A DNA stretch of 64,000 nucleotides from an uncultured Chlorobiaceae bacterium. Its GTDB lineage: Bacteria; Bacteroidota; Ignavibacteria; UBA10030; SZUA-254. Of the stretch, positions 2,303 to 63,689 are shown piece after piece. Positions within the stretch are counted from its first letter, which is position 1, and each line of letters begins with the position of its first letter. Location of the stretch: assembly GCA_964523395.1 (NCBI GenBank), contig CAZFXS010000003.1, positions 209,505-273,504 of the forward strand, in the 5' to 3' direction. Under the pieces are notes generated by a model. It saw only the letters and a list, made by a program, of their open reading frames with translations, had not been told where the DNA came from and ran no database searches. A program made the position numbers and the translations under genes.

Positions 2303-4756
2303 ATGAATATATCTCCTTCATCAAATCATCAGAAATTTTTCGCTTCCTCGTTTGATTACGCGATAATTGTATTGTGCGGTCTGTTCTTTTGCGTGGGAGT
2401 ATTTTCGCTCAACGAAATATCGATCTACACACCGGATAGCACCCGGTACCTCGTGTGGGCAAAATCGCTGTCAGACATGATGGGGTTCTACGACGGAACG
2501 ATGCCGGAGGCTTCGCGTTATGTTGTCCATGCGCCGTTATATCCACTGCTTCTTGCTCCTGTTTCGTTTTTCTTTCCTCAAAGTATCCTCGCGCCAAAAA
2601 TTATCACTCTTCTGATAGGAACCATTGCTCTCTTTTTTCTCTATCGCTGGATGCGCTCTTTCATTCACAGCGGAATCGCGTTTCTGGGGTGCGCTGCACT
2701 TGCAGTGAACCCGTTGTATTTTCTCTATTCCACGGAAGTTCTGTCGGATGTCCCATTTGTCTTAAGTCTTATTCTCGTCTGCATTCTTGTCTCAAAAATT
2801 ACATCTGCCGGAGATTTCCGCCTCCGGGACGTAACTGCTTTGGCGCTATCGGTTGCCGCCGCATTGTTATTGCGTGAAATTGGCATCTCAGTCCTTATAG
2901 CGGCTGTTTTGTTTTTAGTATTCGGGAAAAAATACAAAGAAGCCGGCTTCGTATTTATTATACCGGTTGTTATTTATGGTGCATGGTATGTGCGGAATGA
3001 GCTTGTTGTTGCAGCTCTTGAACAACCGGTACTGACAAACTCTAAAATTTTCAGTTATCATTTCTTCACACCGGCAGACGCAACTCTGGCTCAGGAATTT
3101 ATGGCGCGGATTACTAATAATGCTGAAGTTTACGCAAAACTCATCGGAGATCTGCTTCTTTTTCCAATGTACTTCTCGCCGCAGTATGATCTGGTCGCTC
3201 CTTCCGAACCCATGGTCTCGTTCGTGAAAGGAATCCTTCTTTATGGGAAGTATCCGGTGTTCATTCTTCTATTCTCATCTTTTGTCTATGGAGTAATTAC
3301 AGACGTTCGACGGTCCGGGACAGGATTGTTCCATGTGCTGTTTATCGCACTTTATATAGGCGTAATGTTATTCTATCCTATCAATGATATTCGATTCCTG
3401 CTTCCTCTGATCGTAATAGCAGTGTATTATTTTGTCTGTGGAATAACTCAGTTTTCCGTTAGCCGAATTATTGCTATTCCTTTTGCCGGTGTACTGCTAT
3501 TGCCGAATATTGTCTGGGGTTATTCTTTTGTGAGGAACAGCCATGACTACGCCTCTCATCCGGTCGAATTCTATGAATCGGGCAGGTCGGAGAAAGATTA
3601 TCCAACCCATTTTACCAAGCCGTTCAGGCTGGCAGGGGGGTGGATTCAATCGCATACGCCACCTCAATCGGTGCTTATTTCTCAATGGAAAGACCTGGCA
3701 TTTTGGATTGGTGAGCGAAAGCTTCTGAACGTTGACCAGACAATTGCTCCTGATGAGTTTGAGAATCTCATCCGTGATTACGGGATAACATTTCTGGTAA
3801 GCCAGGTAAAACGGGGGGAAATTTCGGAATTTGCTTTCCAGGTGCACCATGCTCGTCGTTATGAATTTACGTTGCAACATCGCGTCGGTAACACGGAAGT
3901 ATACGAAATTACACGAAGGAAAAATTCGGGACAACCTGAGAGCAATATCTCCCGGTTTGAGGAAAGTCTCAGGGCATTGGATGAAGAGCGGTATGATGCA
4001 GCTGAAACCATTTTAGATTGTCTGTGGCGTGATAATAACAGAAACTTAACTGCGCTCTTTTATCTTGCGACCGCGAAAGAATGCGGTGGAAAACTCATAG
4101 AAGCGGATTCACTATTTGAGTTCATGCGCGAGCATCCCCAGGCAGGAATATTTTTGGGGAAGGCGGGAACCCACCGTCAAATCATCCGTCAATTGAAACT
4201 CGTTGCGCAAGATTCCTCTTCCACCGGGAAAGCAGAAAAACTGCTTGCTGTCGGTGCAGGTTACTGGAACATGGGGCTCCGAACACAAGGGAAAAGTTCG
4301 GTATCGCAGGCTCTGAAGGCAGATTCTCGGTTTGCGAACGCACTGATCTTTCAAACGCTCTTCGCGCTGAAGGAAGGTGATACGATCCTTGCCGTAAAGA
4401 CTGCTCGCGAATTGGAGTCCGTTCACCCGGGTCATCCGGTAAGCTCTGTTTTTAACCGTATGTTTTCAATCTTTGATTCTGTGTCGGTTGTTTCCGATAC
4501 TTCAAAACGTTCTGATTATTTTTTCCAGCTTGCGGAGCAATATCTTGCCCTCGGATTAACAGAGGATGCGGTGGATTGCGGGCTTTTATCGCTGGAGAGT
4601 AATCGTGCGAATTCCCAGACACTGGTCCTTCTTGCAGATATTTACATAAAGAAGCGCCGGTTCGCCCCCGCAAAAAAAGCGTTGCAACATGCTCTCGAAA
4701 TTGATCCCCTTCAAGAAAACGCACGTCTTCTGCTTTCAGAAGCAATGCAACACTAG
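2303..4756 (+). CDS. Integral-membrane GT-C fold glycosyltransferase (ArnT/PMT/GT39-like) with a C-terminal TPR-repeat domain; TMTC-like architecture.
   Basis: About 10 predicted TM helices in the N-terminal ~400 aa, with a first-loop acidic motif P-D-S-T-R-Y resembling the DE/DxD of ArnT/PMT. The C-terminal ~250 aa have TPR-like helical repeats (LALGLTEDAVDCG...LADIYIKKRRFAPAKKALQHALEIDP). Confidence 0.6.
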   Translation: MNISPSSNHQKFFASSFDYAIIVLCGLFFCVGVFSLNEISIYTPDSTRYLVWAKSLSDMMGFYDGTMPEASRYVVHAPLYPLLLAPVSFFFPQSILAPKIITLLIGTIALFFLYRWMRSFIHSGIAFLGCAALAVNPLYFLYSTEVLSDVPFVLSLILVCILVSKITSAGDFRLRDVTALALSVAAALLLREIGISVLIAAVLFLVFGKKYKEAGFVFIIPVVIYGAWYVRNELVVAALEQPVLTNSKIFSYHFFTPADATLAQEFMARITNNAEVYAKLIGDLLLFPMYFSPQYDLVAPSEPMVSFVKGILLYGKYPVFILLFSSFVYGVITDVRRSGTGLFHVLFIALYIGVMLFYPINDIRFLLPLIVIAVYYFVCGITQFSVSRIIAIPFAGVLLLPNIVWGYSFVRNSHDYASHPVEFYESGRSEKDYPTHFTKPFRLAGGWIQSHTPPQSVLISQWKDLAFWIGERKLLNVDQTIAPDEFENLIRDYGITFLVSQVKRGEISEFAFQVHHARRYEFTLQHRVGNTEVYEITRRKNSGQPESNISRFEESLRALDEERYDAAETILDCLWRDNNRNLTALFYLATAKECGGKLIEADSLFEFMREHPQAGIFLGKAGTHRQIIRQLKLVAQDSSSTGKAEKLLAVGAGYWNMGLRTQGKSSVSQALKADSRFANALIFQTLFALKEGDTILAVKTARELESVHPGHPVSSVFNRMFSIFDSVSVVSDTSKRSDYFFQLAEQYLALGLTEDAVDCGLLSLESNRANSQTLVLLADIYIKKRRFAPAKKALQHALEIDPLQENARLLLSEAMQH

Positions 4757-4968
4757 ATCCAGTATTACCTCATTCCGGTGATTCGCGGCTTTTCTCTTCG
4801 TGTGACATAAAACAACCCCCATTTTACTCGTTTGCAGGAAAGTTGTACTTTGTTTCCAGTAATTTTGATGGTGCTTTTAGCAGGAAAAGATTACTGACAT
4901 CAAGAAAAGATTTCTGATGGCGACTGACGAAAACAGTTAAAAAGCGGGATTTTTGCGATGGTTCCCGC

Positions 4969-4983
4969 TGGCACGGTGGTTGC
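4969..4983 (+). promoter_or_regulatory. Sigma54 (RpoN)-type -24/-12 promoter upstream of pilin copy 1.
   Basis: TGGCAC-ggtgg-TTGCG matches the TGGCAC-N5-TTGCW consensus and lies about 80 bp upstream of the ATG at 5063. Confidence 0.6.
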
Positions 4984-5062
4984 GAAGTAAGAAGCAGATA
5001 AGATTGAAAATAAAATAATAAAAACTAATAAACCATAAACTAACCAACGTAGGAGATTTACC

Positions 5063-5452
5063 ATGGGTCAGCAACAGCTCTTATTGATCATCCTCGGCGT
5101 TATCATTGTCGGTATCGCCATAGCAGTCGGTATATCAATGTTCAGTTCCGGTAGCGTCCAGGCGAACCGTGACGGTATTGTGAACGACTTGAATAACCTC
5201 GCAGCCAATGCGTATCAGTTCAAAATTCGCCCGACAACGATGGGCGGAGGCGGCGGAACATACACAGGCGGTTCAGGCTACACCATTCCGACCAAATTAG
5301 TGACGAATGAAAACGGCAGCTATACCCGCACAAACGCAGCTCAGGCAGTTACATTCGTCGGTACGTCAGCTTCCGGATACGGAACAGTTACCGCGGTATG
5401 CGACAGCTCAGGCGCGCTTGGCAGCTTCACCTATACCGGTCAGTTCCAGTAA
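5063..5452 (+). CDS. Major pilin-like protein (type IV pilin-like, non-canonical N-terminus), copy 1.
   Basis: 129 aa. M-G-Q-Q-Q is followed by a ~22-residue hydrophobic helix (LLLIILGVIIVGIAIAVGISMF) resembling the pilin alpha1-N segment, but it lacks the leader peptide and Glu5. There is a Gly-run (MGGGGGTYTGGSG) and an S/T/G-rich globular part. The RBS aggag sits 7 nt upstream, and an in-frame TAA 9 codons upstream fixes the start. The gene lies in a T4P-like cluster. Confidence 0.6.
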   Translation: MGQQQLLLIILGVIIVGIAIAVGISMFSSGSVQANRDGIVNDLNNLAANAYQFKIRPTTMGGGGGTYTGGSGYTIPTKLVTNENGSYTRTNAAQAVTFVGTSASGYGTVTAVCDSSGALGSFTYTGQFQ

Positions 5453-5490
5453 GCCGGTTACGATTTAAGGCGAAGATCGCATAACATATT

Positions 5491-5532
5491 GCCGGCGATA
5501 GAGATTTTCTCTGTCGCCGGCTTTTTGTTTTC
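5491..5532 (+). terminator. Rho-independent terminator after pilin copy 1.
   Basis: Stem gccggcgatagag / ctctgtcgccggc (one G-U pair), followed by tttttgttttc. Confidence 0.85.
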
Positions 5533-5717
5533 AGGGCTTTTTGGATGGTAACATGTCAATTAACGACTATTCTCATTAAGCAACATCGGAAGAATATACA
5601 TGCCCTCAGGTAAAAATTACCGTCAGCAAAAGTGCAGCATTAGTTTCGTAATGTAAAAAGTGCCAAAAATCGCTAATATTAGTAAAAAAGCAAAGTTATG
5701 AGAAGATAGACCTTGGT

Positions 5718-5733
5718 TGGCACACCGGTTGCA
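5718..5733 (+). promoter_or_regulatory. Sigma54-type -24/-12 promoter upstream of pilin copy 2.
   Basis: TGGCAC-accgg-TTGCA is a perfect match to TGGCAC-N5-TTGCA, about 77 bp upstream of the ATG at 5810. Confidence 0.65.
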
Positions 5734-5809
5734 GTTATAGGGACAGTTAAATTGAAATAAAATAATAAAAACTAATAAACCATAAACTAACCAACGTAGG
5801 AGATTTACC

Positions 5810-6199
5810 ATGGGTCAGCAACAGCTCTTATTGATCATCCTCGGCGTTATCATTGTCGGTATCGCCATAGCAGTCGGTATATCAATGTTCAGTTCCGGTA
5901 GCGTCCAGGCGAACCGTGACGGTATTGTGAACGACTTGAATAACCTCGCAGCCAATGCGTATCAGTTCAAAATTCGCCCGACAACGATGGGCGGAGGCGG
6001 CGGAACATACACAGGCGGTTCAGGCTACACCATTCCGACCAAATTAGTGACGAATGAAAACGGCAGCTATACCCGCACAAACGCAGCTCAGGCAGTTACA
6101 TTCGTCGGTACGTCAGCTTCCGGATACGGAACAGTTACCGCGGTATGCGACAGCTCAGGCGCGCTTGGCAGCTTCACCTATACCGGTCAGTTCCAGTAA
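5810..6199 (+). CDS. Major pilin-like protein, copy 2 (nucleotide-identical to 5063-5452).
   Basis: The 390-nt CDS is 100% identical to copy 1 and has the same RBS region. The upstream promoter region and downstream terminator are diverged. Confidence 0.6.
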   Translation: MGQQQLLLIILGVIIVGIAIAVGISMFSSGSVQANRDGIVNDLNNLAANAYQFKIRPTTMGGGGGTYTGGSGYTIPTKLVTNENGSYTRTNAAQAVTFVGTSASGYGTVTAVCDSSGALGSFTYTGQFQ

Positions 6200-6237
6200 G
6201 CCGGTTAAGATTTAAGGCGAAGATCGCATAACATGTT

Positions 6238-6290
6238 GCCAGCGATGGAGGTTCAATCCTTCTGTCGCTGGCAATATGCTTTTATGGCAT
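6238..6290 (+). terminator. Degenerate terminator-like hairpin after pilin copy 2.
   Basis: Stem gccagcga...tcgctggc with a weak T-tract (gcttttatgg). It is homologous to the 5491-5532 terminator but diverged. Confidence 0.4.
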
Positions 6291-6299
6291 AAAGATTGT
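6285..6299 (+). promoter_or_regulatory. Possible sigma54-like element (TGGCAT-N5-TTGTA) upstream of pilin 3.
   Basis: TGGCAT-aaaga-TTGTA has GG at -24 and the correct spacing, but GT rather than GC at -12, so it is weaker. Confidence 0.3.
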
Positions 6300-6361
6300 A
6301 GTATATGTATTGACAAAACACAGAGACAGACATTAATAGTTTTCTTAACAAAGGATAGTAT

Positions 6362-6739
6362 ATGGGCACCCAACAGATGCTGTTGATAATCGTAGGCGTA
6401 ATTGTTGTCGGTATTGCAATCGCCGTTGGGTTAAGTTTATTCAATTCAACAAGTGCGGAATCCAACCGGGATGCTATTGTAAATGATATGATGAATATCA
6501 GCCAATATGCCTATCGGTATAAACTGACCCCTATTCCGTACGGTGGCGGCGGGCGAAGTTATTCGGGGTTTACGATCCCTGAAAAACTCAGTAATAATGA
6601 AAATGCCACATACATGTCTGAAGCAGGTCCGGCTTCAGTCCGGTTCATAGGAACCTCAAATTATGGTTATGGAACTGTTGCTGCGGTTCTGGACAGTTCA
6701 GGGGAGCTTTCCGCTTTTACCTTTAGCGGACAATGGTAA
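6362..6739 (+). CDS. Pilin-like protein, divergent paralog of the 5063/5810 genes.
   Basis: 125 aa. N-terminus MGTQQMLLIIVGVIVVGIAIAVGLSLF has the same M-G-x-Q-Q plus hydrophobic helix architecture. It has a Gly-run (YGGGGRSYSGFTIP) and the conserved motifs NRDxIVNDxxN and GTSxxGYGTVxAV. Confidence 0.55.
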   Translation: MGTQQMLLIIVGVIVVGIAIAVGLSLFNSTSAESNRDAIVNDMMNISQYAYRYKLTPIPYGGGGRSYSGFTIPEKLSNNENATYMSEAGPASVRFIGTSNYGYGTVAAVLDSSGELSAFTFSGQW

Positions 6740-6945
6740 TTCTTACCAGATAGTCTCCATAAAAATATAAAGTACAGGTTTCCCCCTTTTTCAAGCACTT
6801 TTACCAAGCGTACCAACCTTAAAAAGTATTGCCTGCGTCACAAGGCTGTTGCATTTCCAGGGGTCCCTCTATACATTGCCCACGTGAAAAAACGGGTAAA
6901 TTGAGATAAGATTAGGATTAATAAACAAAAGAATGGAGCATTGCA

Positions 6946-8298
6946 ATGCCAGAATTCAGAGTAGAGGGCCTTTCATCAACCGGGAAACCTGTTCAGGGTA
7001 TAATCGAGTCGGAAAATACGCGTGCGGCCAAACAGAAGGCGCAACAGATGGCAACGCAGCGGAAATTCAAACTCATCAGGATTCTTCCCAGATCAACCTT
7101 TCTTTATAAAGTACAGCGGGGAACTGATAAACCTGTTCTTGGTGAACAGAAAGCGTTTACCAAGGAAGAGGTCCAGGATGCTCTGTCGAAAATGGGTTTC
7201 AGAGTCATCAGCGTTAAGAAGAAAACGTTCGATGTAAAAGTAAAACCACCGACAACCGAAATTGTGACATTCGTACGCGTCAGTGCTGACCTAATACGTC
7301 AGAAGCTTCCGTACAATGAAATTCTCCAGCTCATGGTGAATGACATTGAAAATAAAACATTGCGCGATGCCGTCCGTGAAATCAACAATGAGTTGAAACA
7401 GGGTAAAGACAGTGAAAAGGTTTTTATCAAGCAGGAAAACGTCCTCGGGCGTTTCACCGCGCATATGCTTGGTCTTGCGTCGAAGAGCGGTAACATGGCG
7501 GATATCTATGACAGCACAGCGAAGTTTCTCGAACGCAGGGCGGAATTCCGCAAGAATCTGAAAAGCGCATTGATCATGCCGATCGTAACCTTAATCGCGC
7601 TGTTCGGCGCGTGCGTGTATTATGTCGGATTCATTTTCCCGGGTATGGCGGAAATATTTGTTCGCCTCAAAGTGGATATGAGGCAATTTCCAATGACATA
7701 TGCAACGCTGCAGATGAGTGATTTCCTGCAGGATAATATATTTATCATACTCCTGTGCATCACTATTCCTGTGGTCCTTGCGGCAAGATTTTTTACCACC
7801 GAGCGCGGAAGATTCTTCTTGGATCAGTATATCTGGAAAGTTCCGGTTATCGGGAGCCTGCTTCATAAAACTTCCATCGAAATTTTCTGCCGGGTATTCT
7901 ACGCATTGTACAGTGGTTCCGGCGAAAATATTGATGTTATCAAAATGGCAGCAGAAGCAAGCGGCAATAAATATATGGAGCATAAGGTAAAGACCATTGC
8001 TATTCCGATGATGGTGGAAAAAGGCGCAGGAATCACCGAAGCATTTGAAGCATCGGGAGTGTTTACAAAGACGGCTATTTCCCGTCTTCACTCAGGCGCA
8101 GAAACAGGTACGGTCAAGCATACGGCGCTCCAGCTTGCCGAGTATTATGAAAAAGAGACAACCTATAAGATGCGTAATGCTATCGATTTCATTCAGCTCT
8201 GGATCAGTCTGATTATCATGGTCGTATTGACAGCGTTAACGCTCGTTTCATCAGAAACGGCAACGTTCCATCCCAATACGGCGCCCGGACAGCATTAA
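6946..8298 (+). CDS. pilC: PilC/GspF-family inner-membrane platform protein of a type IV pilus / T2SS.
   Basis: 450 aa. The N-terminal cytoplasmic region (FRVEGLSSTGKPVQGIIES..AAKQKA) is typical of PilC. Two T2SS-F-like domains and three TM segments are present. The gene is adjacent to the PilB-like ATPase. Confidence 0.75.
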   Translation: MPEFRVEGLSSTGKPVQGIIESENTRAAKQKAQQMATQRKFKLIRILPRSTFLYKVQRGTDKPVLGEQKAFTKEEVQDALSKMGFRVISVKKKTFDVKVKPPTTEIVTFVRVSADLIRQKLPYNEILQLMVNDIENKTLRDAVREINNELKQGKDSEKVFIKQENVLGRFTAHMLGLASKSGNMADIYDSTAKFLERRAEFRKNLKSALIMPIVTLIALFGACVYYVGFIFPGMAEIFVRLKVDMRQFPMTYATLQMSDFLQDNIFIILLCITIPVVLAARFFTTERGRFFLDQYIWKVPVIGSLLHKTSIEIFCRVFYALYSGSGENIDVIKMAAEASGNKYMEHKVKTIAIPMMVEKGAGITEAFEASGVFTKTAISRLHSGAETGTVKHTALQLAEYYEKETTYKMRNAIDFIQLWISLIIMVVLTALTLVSSETATFHPNTAPGQH

Positions 8299-8349: not shown

Positions 8350-10140
8350 ATGGCTGAAGTCGATATCACTGACAAGATAGGGTATACGCTGTTAAAGAAG
8401 GGCGTCATTGATTATGAAACCCTTGAAAAATCCCTGACGGTAAAAGAATCGGAAGACAAAAAGAACCGGAGAAATCTCGGTCAGATCTTGGTAAACGAAT
8501 TCAGCGTGGACCACGATCTTGTCTTCCGTGAGGTCGCAAACCTCTATGCTTTTCGCGAAATCTATCTCACGGATGAGATCATTGATCCTGTCAGGATAGA
8601 ATTTATCAAGAAGTATGTGGAGGCGCTTCCCGACGCGACAAAAGATCTTCTGGTGCAGATAAAGATGTTGCCGCTCCGGTTTGATGAAAAACAAACCGAT
8701 AAGCTTATCATAATTTCTGCCGATCCAACTGACCGTAATATTCCAACAATAGCGCGCAATTTTGGCGTAAAAAAGTATGAAGTCTGTTACTGTCGGCTCA
8801 AAGACCTGCAGAATCTGATTGAACAGGTTATTCCTCCTGAGAATGAGTTTCTCAAGTTGCTGGCGAATGCCGATGTTGATATTACAGCAGTCGAAGATGA
8901 AGGTGTTGTTGATGAAGAGGCTCTTGAGAGCGAAATAAGCAAAAGCGCGCTTGTTAACCTTGTTGAAGGAGCCCTGATGGAAGCGGTGCGCCAGGGCGCA
9001 AGTGACATCCATATCATTGGTAGGGAAGGCAAACGCACGGATTTCCTTTTCCGTGTCGACGGCAACTTGAAATCATGGCATATTCAGGAGAACACCATGC
9101 CAGAGGCAATTGCCGCTGTCGTCAAGGACCGTTCGAAGAATGTTGACCGTTTTGAACGCGAAATGTCCCAGGACGGTTTTATTCAGCGCATTATCGATGG
9201 ACATAATATCCGATTCAGGGTGTCCATCATGCCGATTGTGGGAACCGAGTTTAAACACAAATTTGAAAGTATCGTTATTCGTGTTCTGGATGACCGTAAG
9301 GTTATCACTGACCTGAACAAGCTGGGATTGCAGGGACCTGCAAAAGATTTCTTTTACAAAGCCATATCGAAGCCTCAGGGTATCGTTATTCTCACCGGTC
9401 CGACGGGAAGCGGAAAAAGTACGACGCTGATCGCCGCGCTTCATCAGGTTATCGACCCTACGGTTAATGTGTTAACTGTCGAAGAACCTGTGGAATATAT
9501 TATCAAAGGCGCACGGCAGTTGAAGATCGGTCACAAGATGGATTTTGACCAAGCGATTCGCGGTATCTTGAGACATGACCCTGACATTGTGCTTGTGGGT
9601 GAAATGCGCGATAAAATGACTGCAGAGATCGCGATTAAACTCGCGAATACGGGTCACCTAACATTTTCAACACTTCATACCAACGACGCTCCCAGTGCGG
9701 TCGCACGTCTCTATAAAATGGGGGTTGAACCGTTTTTGATTGCATATGCCATCAATATCATTGTTGCTCAGCGCCTTATCAGGACACTCTGCTCACTCTG
9801 TAAAAAGCCGTTGAAGTTATCAGAAAAAGAAGTTCAGATTTATCTAAAATTTGGATTCACGGAAGAAATGTTAAAAAATTCCACTTTTTTCGAACCGATT
9901 GGCTGTGAAAAATGCAATGGCGGATGGAAGGGGAGAGCTGCCATTCATGAGGCACTCTACTTTACCAGGGAAATTAAGCAGATCATTGTCGGCTCAGGCA
10001 ATGAAGTGAACGAAAACGCTATTCGTGAACAGGCGGTTAAGGATGGTATGTGGACGCTACGCCGGTCCGGCATGGAAAGAATGATGGAAGGACTAACAAC
10101 GCTGGAGGAAATTATCGCCACAACCACAGAGGATGACTAA
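8350..10140 (+). CDS. pilB: PilB/GspE-family assembly ATPase of a type IV pilus / T2SS.
   Basis: 596 aa with a T2SSE_N-like N-terminal domain and the motif ASDIHI. Walker A is LTGPTGSGKSTT. Asp and His boxes are present, and a tetracysteine motif CSLC...CEKC is at the C-terminus. Confidence 0.9.
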   Translation: MAEVDITDKIGYTLLKKGVIDYETLEKSLTVKESEDKKNRRNLGQILVNEFSVDHDLVFREVANLYAFREIYLTDEIIDPVRIEFIKKYVEALPDATKDLLVQIKMLPLRFDEKQTDKLIIISADPTDRNIPTIARNFGVKKYEVCYCRLKDLQNLIEQVIPPENEFLKLLANADVDITAVEDEGVVDEEALESEISKSALVNLVEGALMEAVRQGASDIHIIGREGKRTDFLFRVDGNLKSWHIQENTMPEAIAAVVKDRSKNVDRFEREMSQDGFIQRIIDGHNIRFRVSIMPIVGTEFKHKFESIVIRVLDDRKVITDLNKLGLQGPAKDFFYKAISKPQGIVILTGPTGSGKSTTLIAALHQVIDPTVNVLTVEEPVEYIIKGARQLKIGHKMDFDQAIRGILRHDPDIVLVGEMRDKMTAEIAIKLANTGHLTFSTLHTNDAPSAVARLYKMGVEPFLIAYAINIIVAQRLIRTLCSLCKKPLKLSEKEVQIYLKFGFTEEMLKNSTFFEPIGCEKCNGGWKGRAAIHEALYFTREIKQIIVGSGNEVNENAIREQAVKDGMWTLRRSGMERMMEGLTTLEEIIATTTEDD

Positions 10141-10233: not shown

Positions 10234-10767
10234 ATGAGTGGTCAAATGTTGATGGTTTTGGGCGCATTGATGTTATTGTCAATGGTAAGTTTATCCATTA
10301 ACACGATGTTTATTGGAAAAACAACAACCATGCTGGATGCGGAAGCAAGTCTGAATGCTATTTCTATCGCGCAGACGATGATTGATGAGATTATGGTAAA
10401 ATCTTACGATGCAGCGACGGTATCGTCGAAAATTTTTAACGCGTCTGCGTTCACAGCTCCGGGAAGTTTGGGAGCAAACGGGACGGAAACATCGAATGTT
10501 CCTCAACCGGACACTTCCAGTCCCTTTAAATCAATCAATAATTACAATGATGTGGACGACTATCACCTCTACCGCAGGACAGTGAACACTCCACGTCTTG
10601 GCAAGTTTACCGTACGGGACAGTGTCTTCTATGTTGTGGAGTCGAATCCAGATCAAAAATCTTTTACACAGACATTCAATAAAAAGATTGTCGTTACCAT
10701 CACTCATCCCAACATGTTACGGCCTTTGCAGATTTCCGATGTTGCTGTTTACAGACGATATTTCTAG
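10234..10767 (+). CDS. Minor pilin-like / pseudopilin-like protein.
   Basis: 177 aa. N-terminus MSGQMLMVLGALMLLSMVSLS is a short polar stretch then a hydrophobic helix with no Glu5. An RBS ggag lies upstream. It sits in the cluster between pilB and the PilW/PilX-like genes. Confidence 0.45.
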   Translation: MSGQMLMVLGALMLLSMVSLSINTMFIGKTTTMLDAEASLNAISIAQTMIDEIMVKSYDAATVSSKIFNASAFTAPGSLGANGTETSNVPQPDTSSPFKSINNYNDVDDYHLYRRTVNTPRLGKFTVRDSVFYVVESNPDQKSFTQTFNKKIVVTITHPNMLRPLQISDVAVYRRYF

Positions 10768-10820
10768 GCCTGATGATATTGCAACGAGATCACAAAAGAA
10801 TTTAGTGAAGGAAGAGTCGT

Positions 10821-11384
10821 ATGGCAGTAATGATGGATATAATTGGCGCAGCAGTACTTGTCGGTATGCTAATGCTTACCGTAATGAATATAAATATCAA
10901 CATGAATTCAGAAACGTACAGAACTGCCAGTGAGTTTCATACACAAACCGAACTGATTCAGCTTGCACGAATCTTTGAGTTTGACTTATACAAGATCGGG
11001 TATGCCGTCGCAAAACCTGCTATTATGGCAGCCGATACGTCGTATCTGAAATTCAAGACGAATCTTCTCAATGTTGCAGGTGCACGGGATAGTATTGAAT
11101 ATATCCTTGGAACACCCGTCACCAGTTCAGTAAACCCCAATGATAAGCATCTCCTACGTATCGAGAATGTCTCGACAGTGTCAATTAGTTATAGTGTTAC
11201 GAAATTTAAGCTGGCGTATTACGATGCCGAAGATTCTTTGATGGCAACGCCAGTTTCGAGCACGCTTCGTGACAGCATTCGGTCAATCAGGATTCAGTTG
11301 CGGCTGGAGGGACCCACTATTATTGACGGAGAATATCCTGGCGCGTTCTATGAGAAACTAATCTATCCACGAAATTTGCAGTGA
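10821..11384 (+). CDS. Minor pilin-like protein (PilW-like).
   Basis: 187 aa with an N-terminal hydrophobic helix (IIGAAVLVGMLMLTVM). The predicted globular C-terminal region ends in a conserved-looking IRIQLRLEGP segment. Confidence 0.4.
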   Translation: MAVMMDIIGAAVLVGMLMLTVMNININMNSETYRTASEFHTQTELIQLARIFEFDLYKIGYAVAKPAIMAADTSYLKFKTNLLNVAGARDSIEYILGTPVTSSVNPNDKHLLRIENVSTVSISYSVTKFKLAYYDAEDSLMATPVSSTLRDSIRSIRIQLRLEGPTIIDGEYPGAFYEKLIYPRNLQ

Positions 11385-11393
11385 GGTGAGAGC

Positions 11394-12410
11394 ATGGGAA
11401 GAATGGCATTGATAATAGTCGTGGGCTTGTCAATAACCCTAGGTGTTGTTGGCTTCAGTCTGAACAGATCAAAGACGGGAACCGTAGAAAATGTTGCCGG
11501 TTTCCATAAGTATACAACCGCGCGCAATATAGCGCATACCGCGGTAAATATGGCGCTCCGGGCGTTGGACCGGAATGATTCGGCCTTTATTGCCAATCGT
11601 AGCTTGAACGTGAGTGCCATGGGTGGCACTGCGGCAGTATCGTTTACATATCCGAATATGTCATCGCTCGATACGATAGATCTTACAGCAACTTCAAGAT
11701 ACATGGATACGACCAAGACGATGTCATTGCGATTATACCGTAGGCCCGTCCCATTTCCCACTATTGGTCAGGCAGTCGGATTGCGGGTTCCGAATGTGGA
11801 TTTCTCGATGTCCGGTACTCCCAGCATTGACGGCCGTAATCATGATATCAACGGAAATCTGCTTGCAGCAAGTGCAAATGATAAACCGGGTGTGGGAGTC
11901 ATCTATGGTCCTGATACCACGGATGTGTTGGGATTCGCGAGCAAAATCAATGGTACGAAGGATGTGGTTTATGATACCACAATTGCTGATCCCGCGCAGT
12001 TTGTCGGAGAATACATCAACGCTGCCGATCGGGTATACACGACCGGTGTGTACGGAAGTAACATGACCTGGGGTTCGGTCACGAGCCCGCAAATCGTCTA
12101 CGCAAATGGCGATGTGAAATTCAATGGTAACATTGAGGGATGGGGAATTTTGGTCGTCAACGGGAATCTCACTCTTGCCGGCACATTTAAATTTCATGGA
12201 TTGGTTGTTGCTTATTCAGATTTTTCCATTGATGTAACATTCTCAACCGGAACCCCGGATGTTATCGGTGCGGTACTTATGGCGGGCATCGCGAACAGTG
12301 ATTACATCATGAAGGGCAATAGTAATGTCTCCTACAGCAAGGATGCGCTGGACAAAGCAAAGTTCATTAACAAGCTTCAGGTGTATCGCGTTATGAGGTG
12401 GTACGAGTAG
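11394..12410 (+). CDS. PilX-like minor pilin / pilus tip-associated protein.
   Basis: 338 aa. An N-terminal hydrophobic helix (MGRMALIIVVGLSITLGVVGF) is followed by a PilX_N-like region (ARNIAHTAVNMALRALD). The Gly-rich C-terminal beta region (GNIEGWGILVVNGNLTLAG...GLVVAY) is typical of PilX family proteins. Confidence 0.55.
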   Translation: MGRMALIIVVGLSITLGVVGFSLNRSKTGTVENVAGFHKYTTARNIAHTAVNMALRALDRNDSAFIANRSLNVSAMGGTAAVSFTYPNMSSLDTIDLTATSRYMDTTKTMSLRLYRRPVPFPTIGQAVGLRVPNVDFSMSGTPSIDGRNHDINGNLLAASANDKPGVGVIYGPDTTDVLGFASKINGTKDVVYDTTIADPAQFVGEYINAADRVYTTGVYGSNMTWGSVTSPQIVYANGDVKFNGNIEGWGILVVNGNLTLAGTFKFHGLVVAYSDFSIDVTFSTGTPDVIGAVLMAGIANSDYIMKGNSNVSYSKDALDKAKFINKLQVYRVMRWYE

Positions 12411-12627: not shown

Positions 12628-13860
12628 ATGGATGAAGCGATTTCCATAATAAAACAGATTGTCAGCAATATACCGGAAACGGCATATGGCGTAGAACGCC
12701 AGATGCTTATCGGAGACCTTGTTTCGCGGCAATCTCAGGAAGAACGGGTCATAGTCAAGAAGATGTTTGACGGTTTCCTGACACGAATGTTCGAAATATC
12801 TGCGTCTGACATTGACCTCGGCGGCTTTGGTTCCCAGGGATGTGTCTGGTATCGTATTCATGGTTCAAAGAAGCCGGATACCAGCCTGCCGACTTTCACA
12901 TTTGACGAATGCAACGTCCTGCTTCAGACCATTTTGCTGGAGCGTCAACGCCAGTTCCTCTACGAAAATAGAAATCTTGATTTTTCGTATACCGTATTTC
13001 ATCAGGATAAAATGCACCGGTTTCGTGCCGATGTGTACTTTGACCTTGACCAGATCGCGATGAACATGCGCGCGATTAATGCAGTTGTTCGTCCGTATAA
13101 GAATCTGGATTTTCATGCAAATGTTACAAAGATTGTAAGTCTTGCTCATACCAAGGAAGGTATGATTCTTGTGACCGGAATTACCGGTTCAGGAAAAAGC
13201 TCGACTCTGGACGCCATTCTTGACGCAAATAATCATAGCGTTGATGCGCACTGCGTTATCATAGCGTCGCCGATTGAGTATGTGCATAAATCCGATCGCT
13301 GCATCATACGTCATAGAGAAGTTGGCCGTGACGTTCTCTCCTTTAAAGAAGGCGCAGTTCAGGCGTTACGGCAAGATCCTGATATTATTATCATCGGCGA
13401 GTTGCGCGATCCTGACACGATTTTGACGGCATTGGAAATTACTGATAGCGGTCATAAAGTATTCTCAACGCTCCATACATCTTCTGCTGTGGAAAGTATT
13501 GACCGTATTATTGGTGAAGTCCCCCCCATTGAACAAGAGCGTGTACGTAACCGGTTGGCGGATATTATTCAGTGCGTCATTTCTCAGAAACTCGTACCAA
13601 GTCTTGATAAGAAACGTGTGCTTGCGAAAGAAGTCATGATTGCGACACCGTCTGTCAGGGCTGCAATTAAAAATAATAATACAAGTGAAATTTATCAGAT
13701 GATGTCGGAATCCGGTGACTTGGGCATGGTCACGATGGAACAGGACTTGAAGCGCCTCTATCTTGCAAAGAAGATATCGCTTGAAACAGCGATGAACTTT
13801 GCAAACAATAAACGCAGGCTGCAGCAAATTCTGAACCTGGTTCCACAAGGTGAATTATAA
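12628..13860 (+). CDS. pilT: PilT/PilU-family twitching-motility (retraction) ATPase with an N-terminal extension.
   Basis: 410 aa. Walker A is GITGSGKSST, with Asp and His boxes. The PilT signature AAIKNNNTSEIYQMMSESGDLGMVTMEQDL matches AIRNLIRE..QI.S.MQTG...GM.T. The N-terminal extension is about 100 aa. Confidence 0.8.
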   Translation: MDEAISIIKQIVSNIPETAYGVERQMLIGDLVSRQSQEERVIVKKMFDGFLTRMFEISASDIDLGGFGSQGCVWYRIHGSKKPDTSLPTFTFDECNVLLQTILLERQRQFLYENRNLDFSYTVFHQDKMHRFRADVYFDLDQIAMNMRAINAVVRPYKNLDFHANVTKIVSLAHTKEGMILVTGITGSGKSSTLDAILDANNHSVDAHCVIIASPIEYVHKSDRCIIRHREVGRDVLSFKEGAVQALRQDPDIIIIGELRDPDTILTALEITDSGHKVFSTLHTSSAVESIDRIIGEVPPIEQERVRNRLADIIQCVISQKLVPSLDKKRVLAKEVMIATPSVRAAIKNNNTSEIYQMMSESGDLGMVTMEQDLKRLYLAKKISLETAMNFANNKRRLQQILNLVPQGEL

Positions 13861-13890: not shown

Positions 13891-15492
13891 ATGGCCTCTA
13901 TGCGAGGAAGTAAATCGAGTGCAATAGGATTGTTTGTCGACGGCTTGGAACTGAAACTTGCCAAGCTTTCCCTAAAACACGGCAAGGTGGTGATCGATGA
14001 ACTGCGCGCCGCCACGTTAGCATCGAAGCTCGAAGAGCGGCAGATTGCCAGCGTGGAAATGGAATCGCTGAGCGAAACCTCTGTGTCGTCGGAAGCATTT
14101 GCCCTGCCGGCCTCTGAACCCGATGCCGACAGCAATACTGATAATAACAGCGTTCTCCTCGGGCTGCTTGCCAAACATCCGACAAGCAGTTATGTCCTTG
14201 GGTATGCTATCTCTGAGCCGAGTATCTACTATCATACACTCGATAGTGATCACGGACTCAAAGGCAAAAAACTTAAACAGCGGGCTGTGGATGAACTGCG
14301 CAATGTGCGTTCAGTTCAACCCCCGCTTGATGCAATTGACTTTTTCCCGTCAGCGGAAAAAAATCTGGTTTGCGTTGTCCGTGAAGACGGAATGACATTA
14401 CTGCGTTCACTTGAAGAGGTGAAACCGTTTTTGGGAAAACATCTCCCCAGAATTCCCCTCATCGAAATTTCCGATGTGGCATTAATGAACCTCGCCAAGG
14501 CGAATTACGGTTTTTCGCCAGATGAAATTACCACGATTATCTATATCGGCGTTGAGTTTACCCGGCTTATTTTCATGAAAGGAACTGAATTCCTCCACTT
14601 CGCGCCGGTGTTGGGTGAGGGGTACGATTCTTCAAATATTCAAAATACCGTGTACAGCAGATTGCTGCTGGAACAAGACAACATGGGTATCCCGCGTATC
14701 GATAAAGTGCTCCTCGCGGGTGAGAGCCGAAGAATTAATTTTGACGAATTTTTGCGTGAACAACTTTCTGACGTAGAAGTACAGTATCTCCGGACTCCGG
14801 AACTCGATTCCAGTGGTTTACCGGCAGATGTGCAGGAGCAAATTCCTGAATATGCAGTTGCGATAGCGACAGCATGGAAAATGCTGGATGATGACCATCC
14901 GGCGTTCTATCCCACGAACGTGCTGCCGGAATCAGTCCGTGAAAGCCAGCGTACCTTCAAGCTTGCGTGGCACGGCTATGTTGCATTAGTCCTTGTATTT
15001 TTATCAACGCTCTTCTTTACGTCGCGATACTCGGAATTACAGCGTGAGGTAGGTGTTAAACAGGGAACACTTGATCAGCTTCAGGAGAAAGTTGCTGAGA
15101 ATGACAAATTGAAAGCCGCGATAGCATCACTTAACGATCAAATCGGCAGATATAACGTAGCCCTTGCAGTGTACGACTCGTTGGTGCCGGGCAGTGACCG
15201 ATGGAATAAATCATTGGCGCACCTTGCAAAAGGTGTCGAAGATCTCGGCGCAATCTGGATTACGGAAATGAGGGCACTTGGCGGCGGTTCCATGAGTATC
15301 CAGGGCTATGCGCTGTATCGCGCTCGTATTCCCAGAATCGCGGCACTCTTTGATAACTCAACACTGACAAAAGTCGAGGTAAAAGAGATTCGTGTCAATT
15401 CTCCTTCTGTCTATAACTTTGTTATCACGGTTCCGCCGCAGGAGCAGAAGATTGAATCGACGATTCCGCCCGCAACCGGCGGACAACAATAA
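13891..15492 (+). CDS. PilM-like actin-fold protein fused to a PilN-like module (TM helix, coiled coil, periplasmic domain).
   Basis: 533 aa. The N-terminus (SAIGLFVDGLELKLAKL) resembles the PilM IGLDIGSS start. A single TM helix (YVALVLVFLSTLFFT) near residue 355 is followed by a coiled coil (LQREVGVKQGTLDQLQEKVAENDKLKAAIASLNDQI), typical of PilN/PilO. Confidence 0.55.
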   Translation: MASMRGSKSSAIGLFVDGLELKLAKLSLKHGKVVIDELRAATLASKLEERQIASVEMESLSETSVSSEAFALPASEPDADSNTDNNSVLLGLLAKHPTSSYVLGYAISEPSIYYHTLDSDHGLKGKKLKQRAVDELRNVRSVQPPLDAIDFFPSAEKNLVCVVREDGMTLLRSLEEVKPFLGKHLPRIPLIEISDVALMNLAKANYGFSPDEITTIIYIGVEFTRLIFMKGTEFLHFAPVLGEGYDSSNIQNTVYSRLLLEQDNMGIPRIDKVLLAGESRRINFDEFLREQLSDVEVQYLRTPELDSSGLPADVQEQIPEYAVAIATAWKMLDDDHPAFYPTNVLPESVRESQRTFKLAWHGYVALVLVFLSTLFFTSRYSELQREVGVKQGTLDQLQEKVAENDKLKAAIASLNDQIGRYNVALAVYDSLVPGSDRWNKSLAHLAKGVEDLGAIWITEMRALGGGSMSIQGYALYRARIPRIAALFDNSTLTKVEVKEIRVNSPSVYNFVITVPPQEQKIESTIPPATGGQQ

Positions 15493-15520: not shown

Positions 15521-16405
15521 GTGTCTTATATCATACGAAATAGCATCGTACTCGGCGTTATCCTCTTCCTTATTCTTGCAGGAGGGATATACTTTACCAT
15601 GTTTTCTCTTCCAAAAAGGATTGAGAAAACGGATGCTGAGATTAAGCGCCTTCAGGACGATTTGCAGAATACTCCCGATCTTGCAAACCAATACAATACC
15701 ACTGCTGCCTTGCTTGATGATATCAAAAAGCGGTGGGAAACGAGAAACAAGGATGTTCCGCCGAAGGACATTACGGGCGAAACGTATGGTTACTTTAACC
15801 GCACAATTGACGTGAGTGGTGAAGTAAAAATGGATATGACGTATGTCGGTCCCAAAGATTTTGGTAACTATGGCTTTAACGTGTATACCCTGAAGGGCGA
15901 AGCGCCGTTCAGCAACTTGTTTAAGTTTATCTGGTTCACAGAAAACGGCCGCCGTCTCTTTAAAATATCCAACCTGGCACTCCGCGGGTATGAATCTAAA
16001 GTCGCGGAAACAGGAGAAACAAAAATCCTCGTTCTCTATGATATGGAGTTGCAGGCATATTATTCCTCCATGCCGGAGCTCAACAATGCACCTGGTCAAT
16101 TGAATGTCGTGCCGACCACGCTGACAGGCAATCCGTTCTATCCGCTTATTCTGCGCGAAATACCTCCTCCGCAGGCGGATGAAATTGAAATTGAACGGTC
16201 TGATTTAAAAGCGGTTATTCCGGGCAAAGCGTTCATTTTAGATCAGTTCCAGAAATCCAGAATTCTTGAAGAAGGTGATCCGGTGTACCTTGGATACGTG
16301 ACAAAGATTTATCCGAACGAAGGAAAGATAGAGTGTTTATTAAATAAAGGCGGTGTCGCCGAACGTTTCGAGCTTACTATACGTGTTGGTCAACCGATTA
16401 AATAG
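15521..16405 (+). CDS. PilO-like protein (N-terminal TM plus coiled coil), possibly with a PilP-like C-terminal beta domain.
   Basis: 294 aa. TM helix IVLGVILFLILAGGIYFTMF, then coiled coil (IEKTDAEIKRLQDDLQ). A beta-rich C-terminal domain follows. The gene lies between the PilM/N-like gene and the secretin. Confidence 0.45.
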   Translation: MSYIIRNSIVLGVILFLILAGGIYFTMFSLPKRIEKTDAEIKRLQDDLQNTPDLANQYNTTAALLDDIKKRWETRNKDVPPKDITGETYGYFNRTIDVSGEVKMDMTYVGPKDFGNYGFNVYTLKGEAPFSNLFKFIWFTENGRRLFKISNLALRGYESKVAETGETKILVLYDMELQAYYSSMPELNNAPGQLNVVPTTLTGNPFYPLILREIPPPQADEIEIERSDLKAVIPGKAFILDQFQKSRILEEGDPVYLGYVTKIYPNEGKIECLLNKGGVAERFELTIRVGQPIK

Positions 16406-16424
16406 CACAATTTACGGAGCTTCC

Positions 16425-17672
16425 ATGAACATCAAATATCTGTTGCTGTTGGTTGTAAGTCTTCTCTTTGTCCAGAGCGTTTCTTCCCAAACCAAGGAAC
16501 AGCGGTTACGGACAAAAGGGTATGTAAATCCCCAGGAAATCGTATCGCTTGATTCCACAACCAGAATGGATCAGGCATTCCTTGTCATTAATGAATTGAG
16601 CAAACAGTTTGCGGGAAAGATTCTTATCGATCTCGAGAAACGCCGTGGCCCCATTGGTGTTTATATTGTGAACCAGCACTGGCGGGATGCGCTTGACATG
16701 ATATTGTCACATAATGGCCTCACTGCCGTCGAAGAATCAGATTTCATCCGGATCATGGCAGCGGGTGCAGCGCCGGTTATGACCGGTTTGGGTTCAGGAG
16801 GCGAGATGAAGGAACCTCCCCCGACACTTGAAAGTCAGGATGTCAAAATTTCCGCGGTATTCTTTTCAACGAACGTCGATAAACTGCAGGACTACGGTAT
16901 CAGCTGGGATTTCTTCCGTTCCAAACCGAAGGAACCGGGCATTTCAGGGTATTTAAGCGCAGGGATTGTCCGTGGCGATACATTGTCGTTGATTCCCCCG
17001 ACATCTCCGCAACCGTCGCTGAACAGAGCTCTTGGCGTTATCTCGTCACCGCCGGAATTTAAATTTGCCAACATCGACGCGTTGGTGAAGTTCTTCGGTT
17101 CAAATCAGCTTGGTGAAGTTATCACCAGTCCGGAAGTTGTTGTCCGGAACGGAAAAAAAGGTAAAATCCAGGTTGGTAAAAATATCTTTATAACCACAAG
17201 AGATATCGCCGGTAACCCCATCGCACAGCAGGTTCAAACCGGAACCATCATTGACGTAAGTCCGATGATTTACACTCAAAACGATACCAATTTTATTTAC
17301 CTCGATCTGAACATCGAACAAAGCGATGCGAATACAGGTCAAACAGGCGTGGAAATTAACAAAGCATCTGTCACCACGCACGCGTTGCTCTACGACGGTG
17401 AAGAGAGTGCTATCGGTGGACTCTACACGACTTCTGAAACCCAGGTCAGGGAAGGAATTCCTGTCCTGAAGGATTTGCCGGGATGGTTCTTTGGCTTGCG
17501 CTATCTCTTTGGTTCTGAAAGCACCACCAAGACCAAGAATGAACTGATTGTGCTTCTCAAGGCTGAATTGTTGCATCCCATCAGGGATCGTATTGCCAAT
17601 CCCACGATGAAGCAGGAACAGCTCTTGAATGAAAAACGGAATGAATTCAAACAGGAATTTGAGAAGAAGTAA
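16425..17672 (+). CDS. pilQ: Secretin (PilQ/GspD family), short form.
   Basis: Start re-set to ATG 16425 (signal peptide MNIKYLLLLVVSLLFVQSVSSQ; RBS ggag 7 nt upstream). The C-terminal secretin core includes GIPVLKDLPGWFFGLRYLFG. About 415 aa. Confidence 0.8.
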   Translation: MNIKYLLLLVVSLLFVQSVSSQTKEQRLRTKGYVNPQEIVSLDSTTRMDQAFLVINELSKQFAGKILIDLEKRRGPIGVYIVNQHWRDALDMILSHNGLTAVEESDFIRIMAAGAAPVMTGLGSGGEMKEPPPTLESQDVKISAVFFSTNVDKLQDYGISWDFFRSKPKEPGISGYLSAGIVRGDTLSLIPPTSPQPSLNRALGVISSPPEFKFANIDALVKFFGSNQLGEVITSPEVVVRNGKKGKIQVGKNIFITTRDIAGNPIAQQVQTGTIIDVSPMIYTQNDTNFIYLDLNIEQSDANTGQTGVEINKASVTTHALLYDGEESAIGGLYTTSETQVREGIPVLKDLPGWFFGLRYLFGSESTTKTKNELIVLLKAELLHPIRDRIANPTMKQEQLLNEKRNEFKQEFEKK

Positions 17673-34358: not shown

Positions 34359-34457
34359 ATCGAATAGAGATTGGAATAATTACGTATAGCAAAAGTGTTA
34401 TATAAAAAATGCTCGCGGTGAGAGATGATCCCGCGAGCATTCAATGAACAGTAACGA

Positions 34458-34880
34458 TTACATGCCTTTGAGAATACGTTCAATCTGCTCGGCGTGGCCG
34501 GTTTCATCCATAAGCAGTTCCTCGAGTTTAATCTTCAAACCGATTTCACCCGCTTCTTCCGCCTGGATGCAACGCTGGCGGTAGTTTTCAATTGCTTCAC
34601 GTTCGAGTTTGAGGTCGTATTTCAGCATGCCCTTGACATCCTTCGGGCATTTATGCTGAACGGGAACGGTGGTCGGCTTCCCGCCAAGGGCCGCGATTTT
34701 CTCAGCGAGGAAAATCGCGTGTGCCATCTCGCCGGTAATTTCCGGAACCAAAAATTCTCGCAACTCTTCGCCATCCCATCCGGTCGCCGTTGATGTTTGA
34801 TAAAGATATAAGAGCGATGCGCCAAGTTCGTTTGCAAGATCCTGGTTCAATCCATCGATGAGTGCCTTTTTGTTTGCCAT
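34458..34880 (-). CDS. bfr: Bacterioferritin-like ferritin-superfamily protein.
   Basis: 140 aa. Di-iron ExxH motifs (EITGEMAHAIF, ELLMDETGHAEQIE) and an N-terminal LIDGLNQDLANELGASLLYLY segment resemble bacterioferritin. It is embedded in the heme operon. Confidence 0.55.
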   Translation of the reverse strand: MANKKALIDGLNQDLANELGASLLYLYQTSTATGWDGEELREFLVPEITGEMAHAIFLAEKIAALGGKPTTVPVQHKCPKDVKGMLKYDLKLEREAIENYRQRCIQAEEAGEIGLKIKLEELLMDETGHAEQIERILKGM

Positions 34881-34895
34881 AGTGTCTCCTTTGCG

Positions 34896-35960: not shown

Positions 35961-35963
35961 CAG

Positions 35964-36764: not shown

Positions 36765-36775
36765 TTGGTATACGG

Positions 36776-61748: not shown

Positions 61749-63689
<1,941 letters not shown>

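Follow-up and report, generated by a model that had tools for sequence, protein, structure and literature searches.

Sigma-54-type promoters and candidate activator sites upstream of pilin-like genes in an uncultured member of the Ignavibacteria

We describe three adjacent pilin-like genes (pil1, pil2, and pil3), and the sigma-54-type promoter elements in front of them, in a 64-kb stretch of contig CAZFXS010000003.1 from an uncultured Chlorobiaceae bacterium. (This whole stretch is "the window" below.) The three genes would be separate single-gene transcription units. Each unit would run from candidate activator sites through a -24/-12 promoter and an A/C-rich leader of about 66 nucleotides (nt) with a Shine-Dalgarno sequence to the open reading frame (ORF) and an intrinsic terminator. 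The features of the locus, all on the plus strand, are:

4837-4915 (+): candidate activator sites of pil1, degenerate: GGAAAGTTGTACT at 4837-4849, half-site AGTAA at 4858, GGAAAAGATTACT at 4883-4895, and AGAAAAGATTTCT at 4903-4915
4969-4984 (+): predicted promoter P1, sigma-54-type (-24/-12): TGGCACggtggTTGCG, the exact consensus; predicted transcription start at about 4995
4995-5062 (+): predicted pil1 leader of about 68 nt; rich in A and C, no predicted structure, Shine-Dalgarno sequence GGAG
5063-5452 (+): pil1, encoding a 129-amino-acid pilin-like protein with the N-terminus MGQQQLLLIILGVIIVGIAIAVG
5491-5531 (+): intrinsic terminator of pil1, a stem of 14 base pairs (bp) and then TTTTTGTTTT; z = -4.79
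5588-5621 (+): candidate activator sites of pil2: a weak distal site, GGAAGAATATACA, at 5588-5600 and a perfect proximal site, GGTAAAAATTACC, at 5609-5621
5718-5733 (+): predicted promoter P2, sigma-54-type (-24/-12): TGGCACaccggTTGCA, an 11/11 consensus match; predicted transcription start at about 5744
5744-5809 (+): predicted pil2 leader, about 66 nt
5810-6199 (+): pil2, encoding 129 amino acids; its coding sequence is 100% identical to that of pil1 (390/390)
6232-6285 (+): intrinsic terminator of pil2; z = -6.27
6285-6300 (+): candidate weaker promoter P3, sigma-54-type: TGGCATaaagaTTGTA, of the form TGGCAT-N5-TTGTA, which abuts the pil2 terminator
6362-6739 (+): pil3, encoding a 125-amino-acid paralogue with the N-terminus MGTQQMLLIIVGV and 57% identity to pil1

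The original prediction, which was made from the letters of the window, placed TGGCAC-N5-TTGC elements at 4969 and 5718, about 80 bp before the start codons of the first two genes. These positions are correct: the C of the -12 element lies 80 nt from the ATG of pil1 (at 5063) and 78 nt from the ATG of pil2 (at 5810). P1 and P2 both have GG at -24 and GC at -12, with one helical turn between them. On the two strands of the window, the exact motif TGGCAC-N5-TTGC has two matches, P1 and P2. In shuffled sequences that preserve dinucleotides, 0.19 matches are expected, and two or more matches were reached in just 1 of 100 shuffles. If one mismatch is allowed, there are 4 matches in the window against 4.19 expected, which is the chance level.

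P1 and P2 share the ten consensus bases; in the 5-base spacer, 3 bases differ. Over the 200 nt that precede the motif, pil1 and pil2 are 52.3% identical, as compared to 49.5 ± 1.7% for shuffled sequences. Because the flanking identity is at the shuffled level, the motif is the sole feature that is common to otherwise unrelated upstream DNA. We take this as evidence that the two promoter elements are under selection. The two copies are 52% identical upstream and 95.6% identical once the predicted transcription start is reached, which is an indirect hint as to where transcription begins. A scan for sigma-70-like promoters found none upstream of pil1 or pil2.

We also compared the window with 79 loci from species-representative genomes and with contigs of three closer relatives. 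(These loci are identified by L numbers.) Nearly all of the homologous loci are from the Ignavibacteria class, and they include a metagenome-assembled genome of Ignavibacterium album, Melioribacteraceae, Stygiobacter electus, and Kryptoniota. We searched the 200 nt before each of 110 genes of the pilin-like family (21.9 kb in total) and used the remaining 1.63 Mb, on both strands, as the background. TGGCAY-N5-TTG is present in 39 of the 110 upstream regions. This corresponds to 1.78 matches per kb, versus 0.0166 per kb in the background (27 matches), or an enrichment of more than 100-fold. Another 22 family genes have one-mismatch forms such as TGGTAC-N5-TTGA. The distance from the motif to the ATG is mostly 49-105 nt. 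L081, which is syntenic with the window, has three tandem paralogues of 129 amino acids, and each of them has TGGCAY-N5-TTGC in non-homologous intergenic DNA.

To obtain a position matrix without presupposing the -12 element, we selected 84 sites on GGCAY alone. Among these sites, 55 have T at position 0, 74 have a purine at +6, and 54-56 have TTG at +11 to +13. These are the positions at which the sigma-54 consensus, TGGCACR-N4-TTG, has the same bases. The -12 position itself is A in 34 sites, T in 22, C in 21, and G in 7. On this alignment the family consensus is TGGCAY-R-N4-TTG-N, that is, the geometry and the -24 box of a sigma-54 promoter with a relaxed -12 C. Because the two blocks lie one turn apart at a fixed spacing while the distance to the ATG varies, we read this as a sigma-54 element that acts at the level of DNA and not as a sigma-70 promoter, a promoter for an extracytoplasmic function (ECF) sigma factor, or an RNA element.

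Some loci are arranged differently. At eight loci of the Melioribacteraceae type (L059, L061, L063, L066, L071, L073, L074, and L079), TGGCAC lies 63-80 nt before the ATG of the pilin homologue, and the -12 region is AT-rich and lacks TTG (for example, TGGCACAATTATTTTT and TGGCACGATTCTGGAA). The pilin homologues of L020 (5165-6000), L027 (3832-4711), L070 (4627-5574), and L041 (about 5880-6000) have no sigma-54 motif; instead, an element with the form AAAATCCAGCAnTTTCCCTGATTGA is common to their upstream regions. Directly upstream in L020, L027, and L070 is a gene for a receiver-domain regulator. In L030, L032, and L076, the pilin gene is adjoined by a divergent receiver-domain gene and by a gene for a receiver-containing protein of about 750 amino acids.

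When the promoters are aligned on the -24 box, a 13-bp palindrome, GGWAA-N3-TTWCC, recurs upstream. Palindromes scoring at least 8/9 have a density of 5.8 per kb within the 220 nt before the family promoters and of 0.52 per kb overall, which is an 11-fold enrichment. Their centres lie 97-103 nt (17 sites) or 118-125 nt (11 sites) from the T of the -24 box, and also at 79-83 nt; by chance, about 0.1 sites would be expected per 7-nt positional window across 36 promoters. Palindromes at about 80, 101, and 122 nt from the -24 box are in 21-bp phase and so would lie on one face of the helix. The original prediction had suggested looking for inverted repeats 80-150 bp upstream of the promoters. Such repeats do exist at conserved positions in the family, and upstream of pil2 the repeat at 5609-5621 is perfect; upstream of pil1 there are only degenerate versions. 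Measured from the -24 T, the centres of the distal and proximal pil2 sites lie 124 and 103 nt upstream, where many homologous promoters have theirs, also 21 bp apart. On the same measure, the candidate sites of pil1 are centred about 126, 105, 80, and 60 nt upstream, about 21 bp apart, and score 6-7/9 against the family palindrome. They are weak when taken alone and are read via the family pattern. From its sequence and placement, the palindrome is a putative binding site for an activator of the NtrC family.

The combination of palindrome and promoter is also found upstream of a minor-pilin-like operon in L004, L037, and L040 and of a CarboxypepD_reg gene in L081. Its presence at these further genes suggests a small regulon. 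Because the orthologue in L081 has the motif, we checked the CarboxypepD_reg gene of the window: there is no sigma-54 motif upstream of it, and a TTGACA-type element is found there. There is also no sigma-54 motif in the intergenic DNA upstream of the minor-pilin-like gene at 10234.

pil1 and pil2 are each closed by a strong intrinsic terminator and hence are each a transcription unit of their own. A compensatory change distinguishes the terminator stem of pil2 (GCCAGCGA/TCGCTGGC) from that of pil1 (GCCGGCGA/TCGCCGGC), and this speaks for a function of both hairpins. The homogenised tract (4995-5530 versus 5744-6285) coincides with the predicted transcription unit, which would fit gene conversion or duplication in the recent past. 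The relatives differ in copy number: L080 has one copy plus pil3, and L081 has three copies plus a pil3-type gene. The exact pilin was matched only on L080, a 3.4-kb contig from the Joint Genome Institute (JGI). The predicted leaders of pil1 and pil2 are 95.6% identical, and the pil1 leader has a minimum free energy of -3.8 kcal/mol (z = +0.45). Across the family, the leaders contain little G and much A and C (AACTAACCAAC and ACAACAACA are examples of their motifs), and no structure is predicted for them. Such a leader may act as a translation enhancer for a highly expressed gene.

If a sigma-54 system does operate here, then RNA polymerase with sigma-54 would bind TGGCAC-N5-TTGC as a closed complex. 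An AAA+ activator of the NtrC family, encoded outside of the window, would bind the 13-bp palindromes as dimers, oligomerise, loop to the promoter, and open the complex with ATP. The major subunit of a type IV pilus-like filament would thereby be expressed at a high level and under a tight switch. The best-preserved module would be that of pil2; pil1 would combine a canonical promoter with degenerate activator sites; and pil3 would have a weakened promoter and possibly also receive read-through of the pil2 terminator.

Several observations weigh against a sigma-54 system of this kind. A cognate enhancer-binding protein was not found within the window. Indeed, the original prediction had already stated that the window encodes no NtrC-type activator and that its sole response regulator is OmpR-type, and domain, motif, and phmmer searches all bear this out: no ORF of at least 110 amino acids in the window contains a Sigma54_activat domain; GAFTGA, ESELFGH, and the activator-type Walker A motif are absent from the six frames of the window; and, when searched with a genuine enhancer-binding protein, the only part of the window that matched was the receiver domain of its OmpR-type regulator (54041-54769). 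Neither a PilR-type activator nor a PilS-type kinase is present in the window or within 10 kb upstream in the syntenic L081. Nor did a regular-expression scan (for the RpoN box and for activator motifs) combined with phmmer find rpoN in the window or in about 0.8 Mb of fetched loci. The -12 C is kept in just a quarter of the family sites (the 21 of 84 given above), so that the family departs from the usual GC doublet, which P1 and P2 do have. Roughly one in three homologous genes has no motif at all; these are largely the second or third members of tandem arrays, sitting 3' of terminators. The alternative upstream element and the receiver-domain regulator in some sub-lineages suggest regulatory turnover. 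Finally, the activator sites of pil1 are degenerate, and we found no palindrome upstream of the pil3 promoter.

On the other side, the class does have genes for the right type of activator. Among the fetched loci, only L034 (Ignavibacteriaceae) and L016 (Ignavibacteria) encode activators, and in both cases a PAS histidine kinase is paired with a 463-amino-acid regulator that has receiver, AAA+, and helix-turn-helix domains and the motifs ESELFGH and GSFTGA. The regulator matches the models for AtoC, ZraR, and NtrC from end to end (E = 1e-144 to 1e-118), below the equivalog cut-offs. The pair lies 1.6-3.5 kb 3' of the pilin genes. NtrC-type activators function only with sigma-54, so the presence of these proteins in L034 and L016 implies that the Ignavibacteria class has a sigma-54 system. 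For the palindrome, this regulator is a candidate activator. In our literature searches on Ignavibacteria with sigma-54 or rpoN, we found no relevant paper. Sigma-54 is nearly universal among diderm bacteria with lipopolysaccharide (PMC3162934), and the source genome presumably encodes rpoN. As a separate observation, L034 (at 11097) and L016 (at 5707) share a conserved TGGCACATTCCTTGC with a canonical TTGC directly 3' of the activator gene, and this is likely to be a further sigma-54 promoter.

Two other explanations of P1 and P2 need to be weighed. The motifs might be there by chance, or be non-functional and inherited by duplication, with the pilins transcribed from sigma-70 or Bacteroidota-type promoters. 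There are just two exact sites in the window and pil1 and pil2 are duplicates, and the sigma-70 scan might miss the housekeeping promoter type of this host. But the motifs lie outside of the highly identical duplicated tract, in DNA whose identity is at the random level; the enrichment upstream of homologues holds across many species with a strictly fixed internal spacing; the palindromes lie at a fixed distance from the motif; and the scan saw no sigma-70-like site in front of either gene. We consider this explanation to be scarcely credible. Alternatively, the bipartite element might be read by something else: a repressor that uses it as an operator, an ECF-type sigma factor, or an RNA element in a longer 5' untranslated region. 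The frequent loss of the -12 C, the Melioribacteraceae-type loci that retain TGGCAC alone, and the failure to see rpoN all fit with such a reader. However, TGGCAC(R) and TTG placed one helical turn apart are the signature of sigma-54, while sigma-70 and ECF promoters have spacers of 16-18 nt. A geometry in which the ATG moves over 49-105 nt and the palindrome stays in place points to a DNA element, and NtrC-type activators do occur in the class. An RNA element in particular was rejected, as a scan of 4700-7000 against Rfam matched no family and the leaders are unstructured. We judge a reader other than sigma-54 to be very unlikely.

From the motifs, their enrichment and positional conservation, and the terminators, all of which can be seen directly in the DNA, we infer both sigma-54 dependence and the transcription start sites. 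The original prediction's interpretation of the first two sites as sigma-54 promoters is supported by their canonical sequence, their exact N5 spacing, and their recurrence upstream of homologues. Overall, we think that P1 and P2 are probably sigma-54 promoters that are served by an unlinked activator.

The third site is more ambiguous. The original prediction described a weaker TGGCAT-N5-TTGTA upstream of the third pilin gene, and it is indeed present at 6285-6300; its role as a promoter is uncertain, as it is lineage-restricted and lacks a candidate activator site. TTGT ends 63 nt before the ATG of pil3 (6362). The GG at -24 is kept, the -12 C is replaced (TTGT), and -21 is T. Because one-mismatch matches in the window are at the chance level, this site has no statistical weight by itself. 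Whether P3 is a weak but working promoter, as opposed to pil3 depending on read-through, is close to an even call.

The alternative is that P3 does not work as a promoter and that its motif is a remnant, either decaying or there by accident. Expression of pil3 would then come from polymerase that partly reads through the pil2 terminator, and the resulting lower dose would suit a minor subunit. The lack of a GC doublet, the T at -21, the chance-level frequency of such matches, and the lack of a palindrome upstream all point this way. So do the relatives: the motif is missing from 7 of 12 pil3-like genes and is present only with a mismatch in another, and in L001, L004, L005, L009, L037, and L040, the pil3-like gene lies directly behind a terminator hairpin. 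(L005 is the one-mismatch case.) Against this, the close relative L080 has the canonical TGGCACaagtaTTGCA at the position that is homologous to P3, and over about 150 nt a perfect match would arise by chance with a probability of roughly 1e-4. Both TGGCAT and TTGT are also common variants in the family (12 and 14 of 36 promoters, respectively); the hairpin of the second terminator is very strong (z = -6.3), which disfavours much read-through; and enhancer-binding proteins can act from the activator sites of pil2, about 680 bp away. We give the read-through explanation somewhat less than an even chance. A Bacteroidota-type TAnnTTTG element that was noticed by eye near pil3 was rejected, as transcription would start inside the Shine-Dalgarno sequence. 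Separately, a near-perfect palindrome, GGTAATTCTTACC, lies over the stop codon of pil3 at 6735-6747, some 200 nt ahead of the PilC-like gene, and about 100 nt 3' of this palindrome, near 6843, there is only a poor -24/-12 candidate, AGGCTGttgcaTTTC.

Two other -24/-12-like sequences were seen in the window. At 61643-61659 on the plus strand, TGGCATaccaaTTGTAA precedes dnaK (61749-63689) by about 90 nt. It has the same variant form as P3, with no palindrome upstream, and may be a chance match. On the minus strand, TGGCATcccatTTGCT at 39912-39896 is followed after about 30 nt by an ATG (at about 39866) and is consistent with chance at the one-mismatch level. The gene there encodes a Cytochrom_C_asm protein and heads a haem-biosynthesis operon (32386-39919, minus strand); the ATG at about 39866 is a likelier start than the TTG at 39919.

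Downstream of pil3, the window encodes a pilus-like gene cluster:

6946-8298 (+): PilC-like platform protein (T2SSF domain match)
8350-10140 (+): PilB-like ATPase (T2SSE domain match)
10234-12410 (+): three ORFs resembling minor pilins, with the hydrophobic N-termini MSGQMLMVLG, MAVMMDIIG, and MGRMALIIVVG
12628-13860 (+): PilT-like ATPase (T2SSE domain match)
13891-15492 (+): weakly PilM-like ORF of 533 amino acids (Amuc_1101 family, E = 2.8e-5, far below the cut-off)
15521-16405 (+): ORF of unknown function
16353-17672 (+): secretin (domain match)

(The Amuc_1101 family comprises PilM-like pilus complex proteins of Akkermansia.) The order of T2SSF, T2SSE, and secretin genes is syntenic in L081. 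From their N-termini, the three ORFs at 10234-12410 look like minor subunits that match the MGQQQ family described below. The window also encodes type IX secretion sorting domains and a monogalactosyldiacylglycerol synthase, which fit its placement in the Ignavibacteria class.

The original prediction called the products of pil1, pil2, and pil3 pilins. In favour of this label, the genes adjoin those for T2SSE, T2SSF, and secretin proteins; however, the proteins fail the canonical type IV prepilin signature. The family has 2,962 matches at E ≤ 1e-3, which are uniformly annotated as hypothetical, and it has no match in Pfam or NCBIfam. Its members share an invariant N-terminus, MGQQQ(L/M)LLII (MGQQQLLLIILG in the window), and no upstream in-frame start is possible. 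The class III prepilin signature, in which a short basic leader ends in Gly and is followed by a hydrophobic residue at +1, Glu at +5, and an N_methyl motif, is not seen: nothing but Met-Gly could serve as a leader, and both Glu5 and the N_methyl motif are missing. When aligned with the PilA of Geobacter, Leu8 of the pilin-like protein occupies the place of Glu5. In an AlphaFold2 model, a helix (residues 3-55) is followed by a four-stranded sheet, with a mean confidence score (pLDDT) of 81. The α-1 helix of Geobacter PilA shows weak similarity (hhalign probability 66%, 38% identity over 37 columns) and was the only hit, also a weak one, in a sequence search of the PDB (E = 0.11); a Foldseek search with the model gave no significant match in the PDB. 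No prepilin peptidase is encoded in the window. The products of pil1 to pil3 are best called non-canonical pilin-like subunits.

In the genome of Melioribacter roseus, pilB, pilC, pilT, and pilQ were reported, and neither pilA nor pilD was detected (PMC3534657). The MGQQQ family could plausibly account for the missing pilA in this organism. A broader proposal, which we hold only tentatively, is that the MGQQQ family is the missing major subunit of the type IV pilus-like machine of Ignavibacteria and Melioribacter, being leaderless, without Glu5, and without processing of the PilD type; that it belongs to a class-wide regulon of an NtrC-family protein that recognizes GGTAA-N3-TTACC; and that the sigma-54 holoenzyme of this class tolerates any base at -12 (TTGN).

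RpoN and PilR control the major pilin genes of Pseudomonas and Myxococcus. As the original prediction indicated, RpoN-dependent transcription of pilins is a known theme, and it has been documented in Geobacter (PMC2725144), Xanthomonas (PMC7170775), and commensal Neisseria (PMC6528607). The systems include PilS-PilR at pilA in Pseudomonas aeruginosa, Myxococcus xanthus, and Geobacter sulfurreducens, PilRX and RpoN2 in Xanthomonas oryzae, and Nps/Npa with RpoN at pilE in Neisseria. The locus described here resembles the PilS-PilR systems in that a -24/-12 promoter lies directly upstream of a single-gene unit for the major pilin, with activator sites (here, candidate sites) about 100-150 bp upstream; in that the pilin gene adjoins genes of the PilB, PilC, and PilT types; and in that a kinase and an NtrC-type regulator are encoded close to the pilins in the relatives L034 and L016. 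In contrast, the lineage is the Ignavibacteria class, in the Fibrobacteres-Chlorobi-Bacteroidetes (FCB) group, and the subunit is not a recognisable PilA, with no prepilin leader, Phe1, Glu5, or Pfam/NCBIfam match. No activator gene lies near the pilins within the window; the neighbouring kinase in L034 looks like a PAS-type kinase and not like the multi-span PilS; and the -12 C is often replaced across the family.

The candidate activator site differs as well. The PilR site of P. aeruginosa is described as a tandem (C/G)TGTC repeat, while the candidate site here is the GGWAA-N3-TTWCC palindrome. The operators of NtrC (TGCACCA-N3-TGGTGCA) and LuxO (TTGCA-N3-TGCAA) are both N3-centred palindromes. 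NtrC at glnAp2 and LuxO at the qrr genes thus resemble this locus in having N3-centred palindromes (5-N3-5 here), with two or three sites on the same face about 100-150 bp before a sigma-54 promoter. They differ in that the half-site here is GGWAA, the sites are 21 bp apart instead of about 32 bp as at glnAp2, and the sites here are candidates known from sequence. As to the subunit, the T2SSF, T2SSE, and secretin neighbours are as for type IVa pilins such as Geobacter PilA, and the long predicted N-terminal helix and four-stranded sheet may be so as well; type IVa pilins have the leader, the Glu5, and the N_methyl motif that the MGQQQ proteins lack.

In summary, control of pili by RpoN is known; what is new is its probable appearance in an unstudied lineage, the conserved architecture of the candidate activator sites, and an unannotated pilin family. 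Ignavibacteria, which belong to the FCB group and have mostly not been cultured, are abundant in sediments, aquifers, and bioreactors, and the arrangement described here provides a first concrete and testable regulatory model for their pilus-like filaments. The TGGCAY-N5-TTGN variant and the GGWAA-N3-TTWCC palindrome are handles with which to define the regulon and to find its activator. The relaxed -12 position is relevant to the prediction of sigma-54 promoters outside of the Proteobacteria. And the pilin-like proteins of the unannotated family, about 3,000 in number, are a probable reason for the reported lack of pilA in the class.

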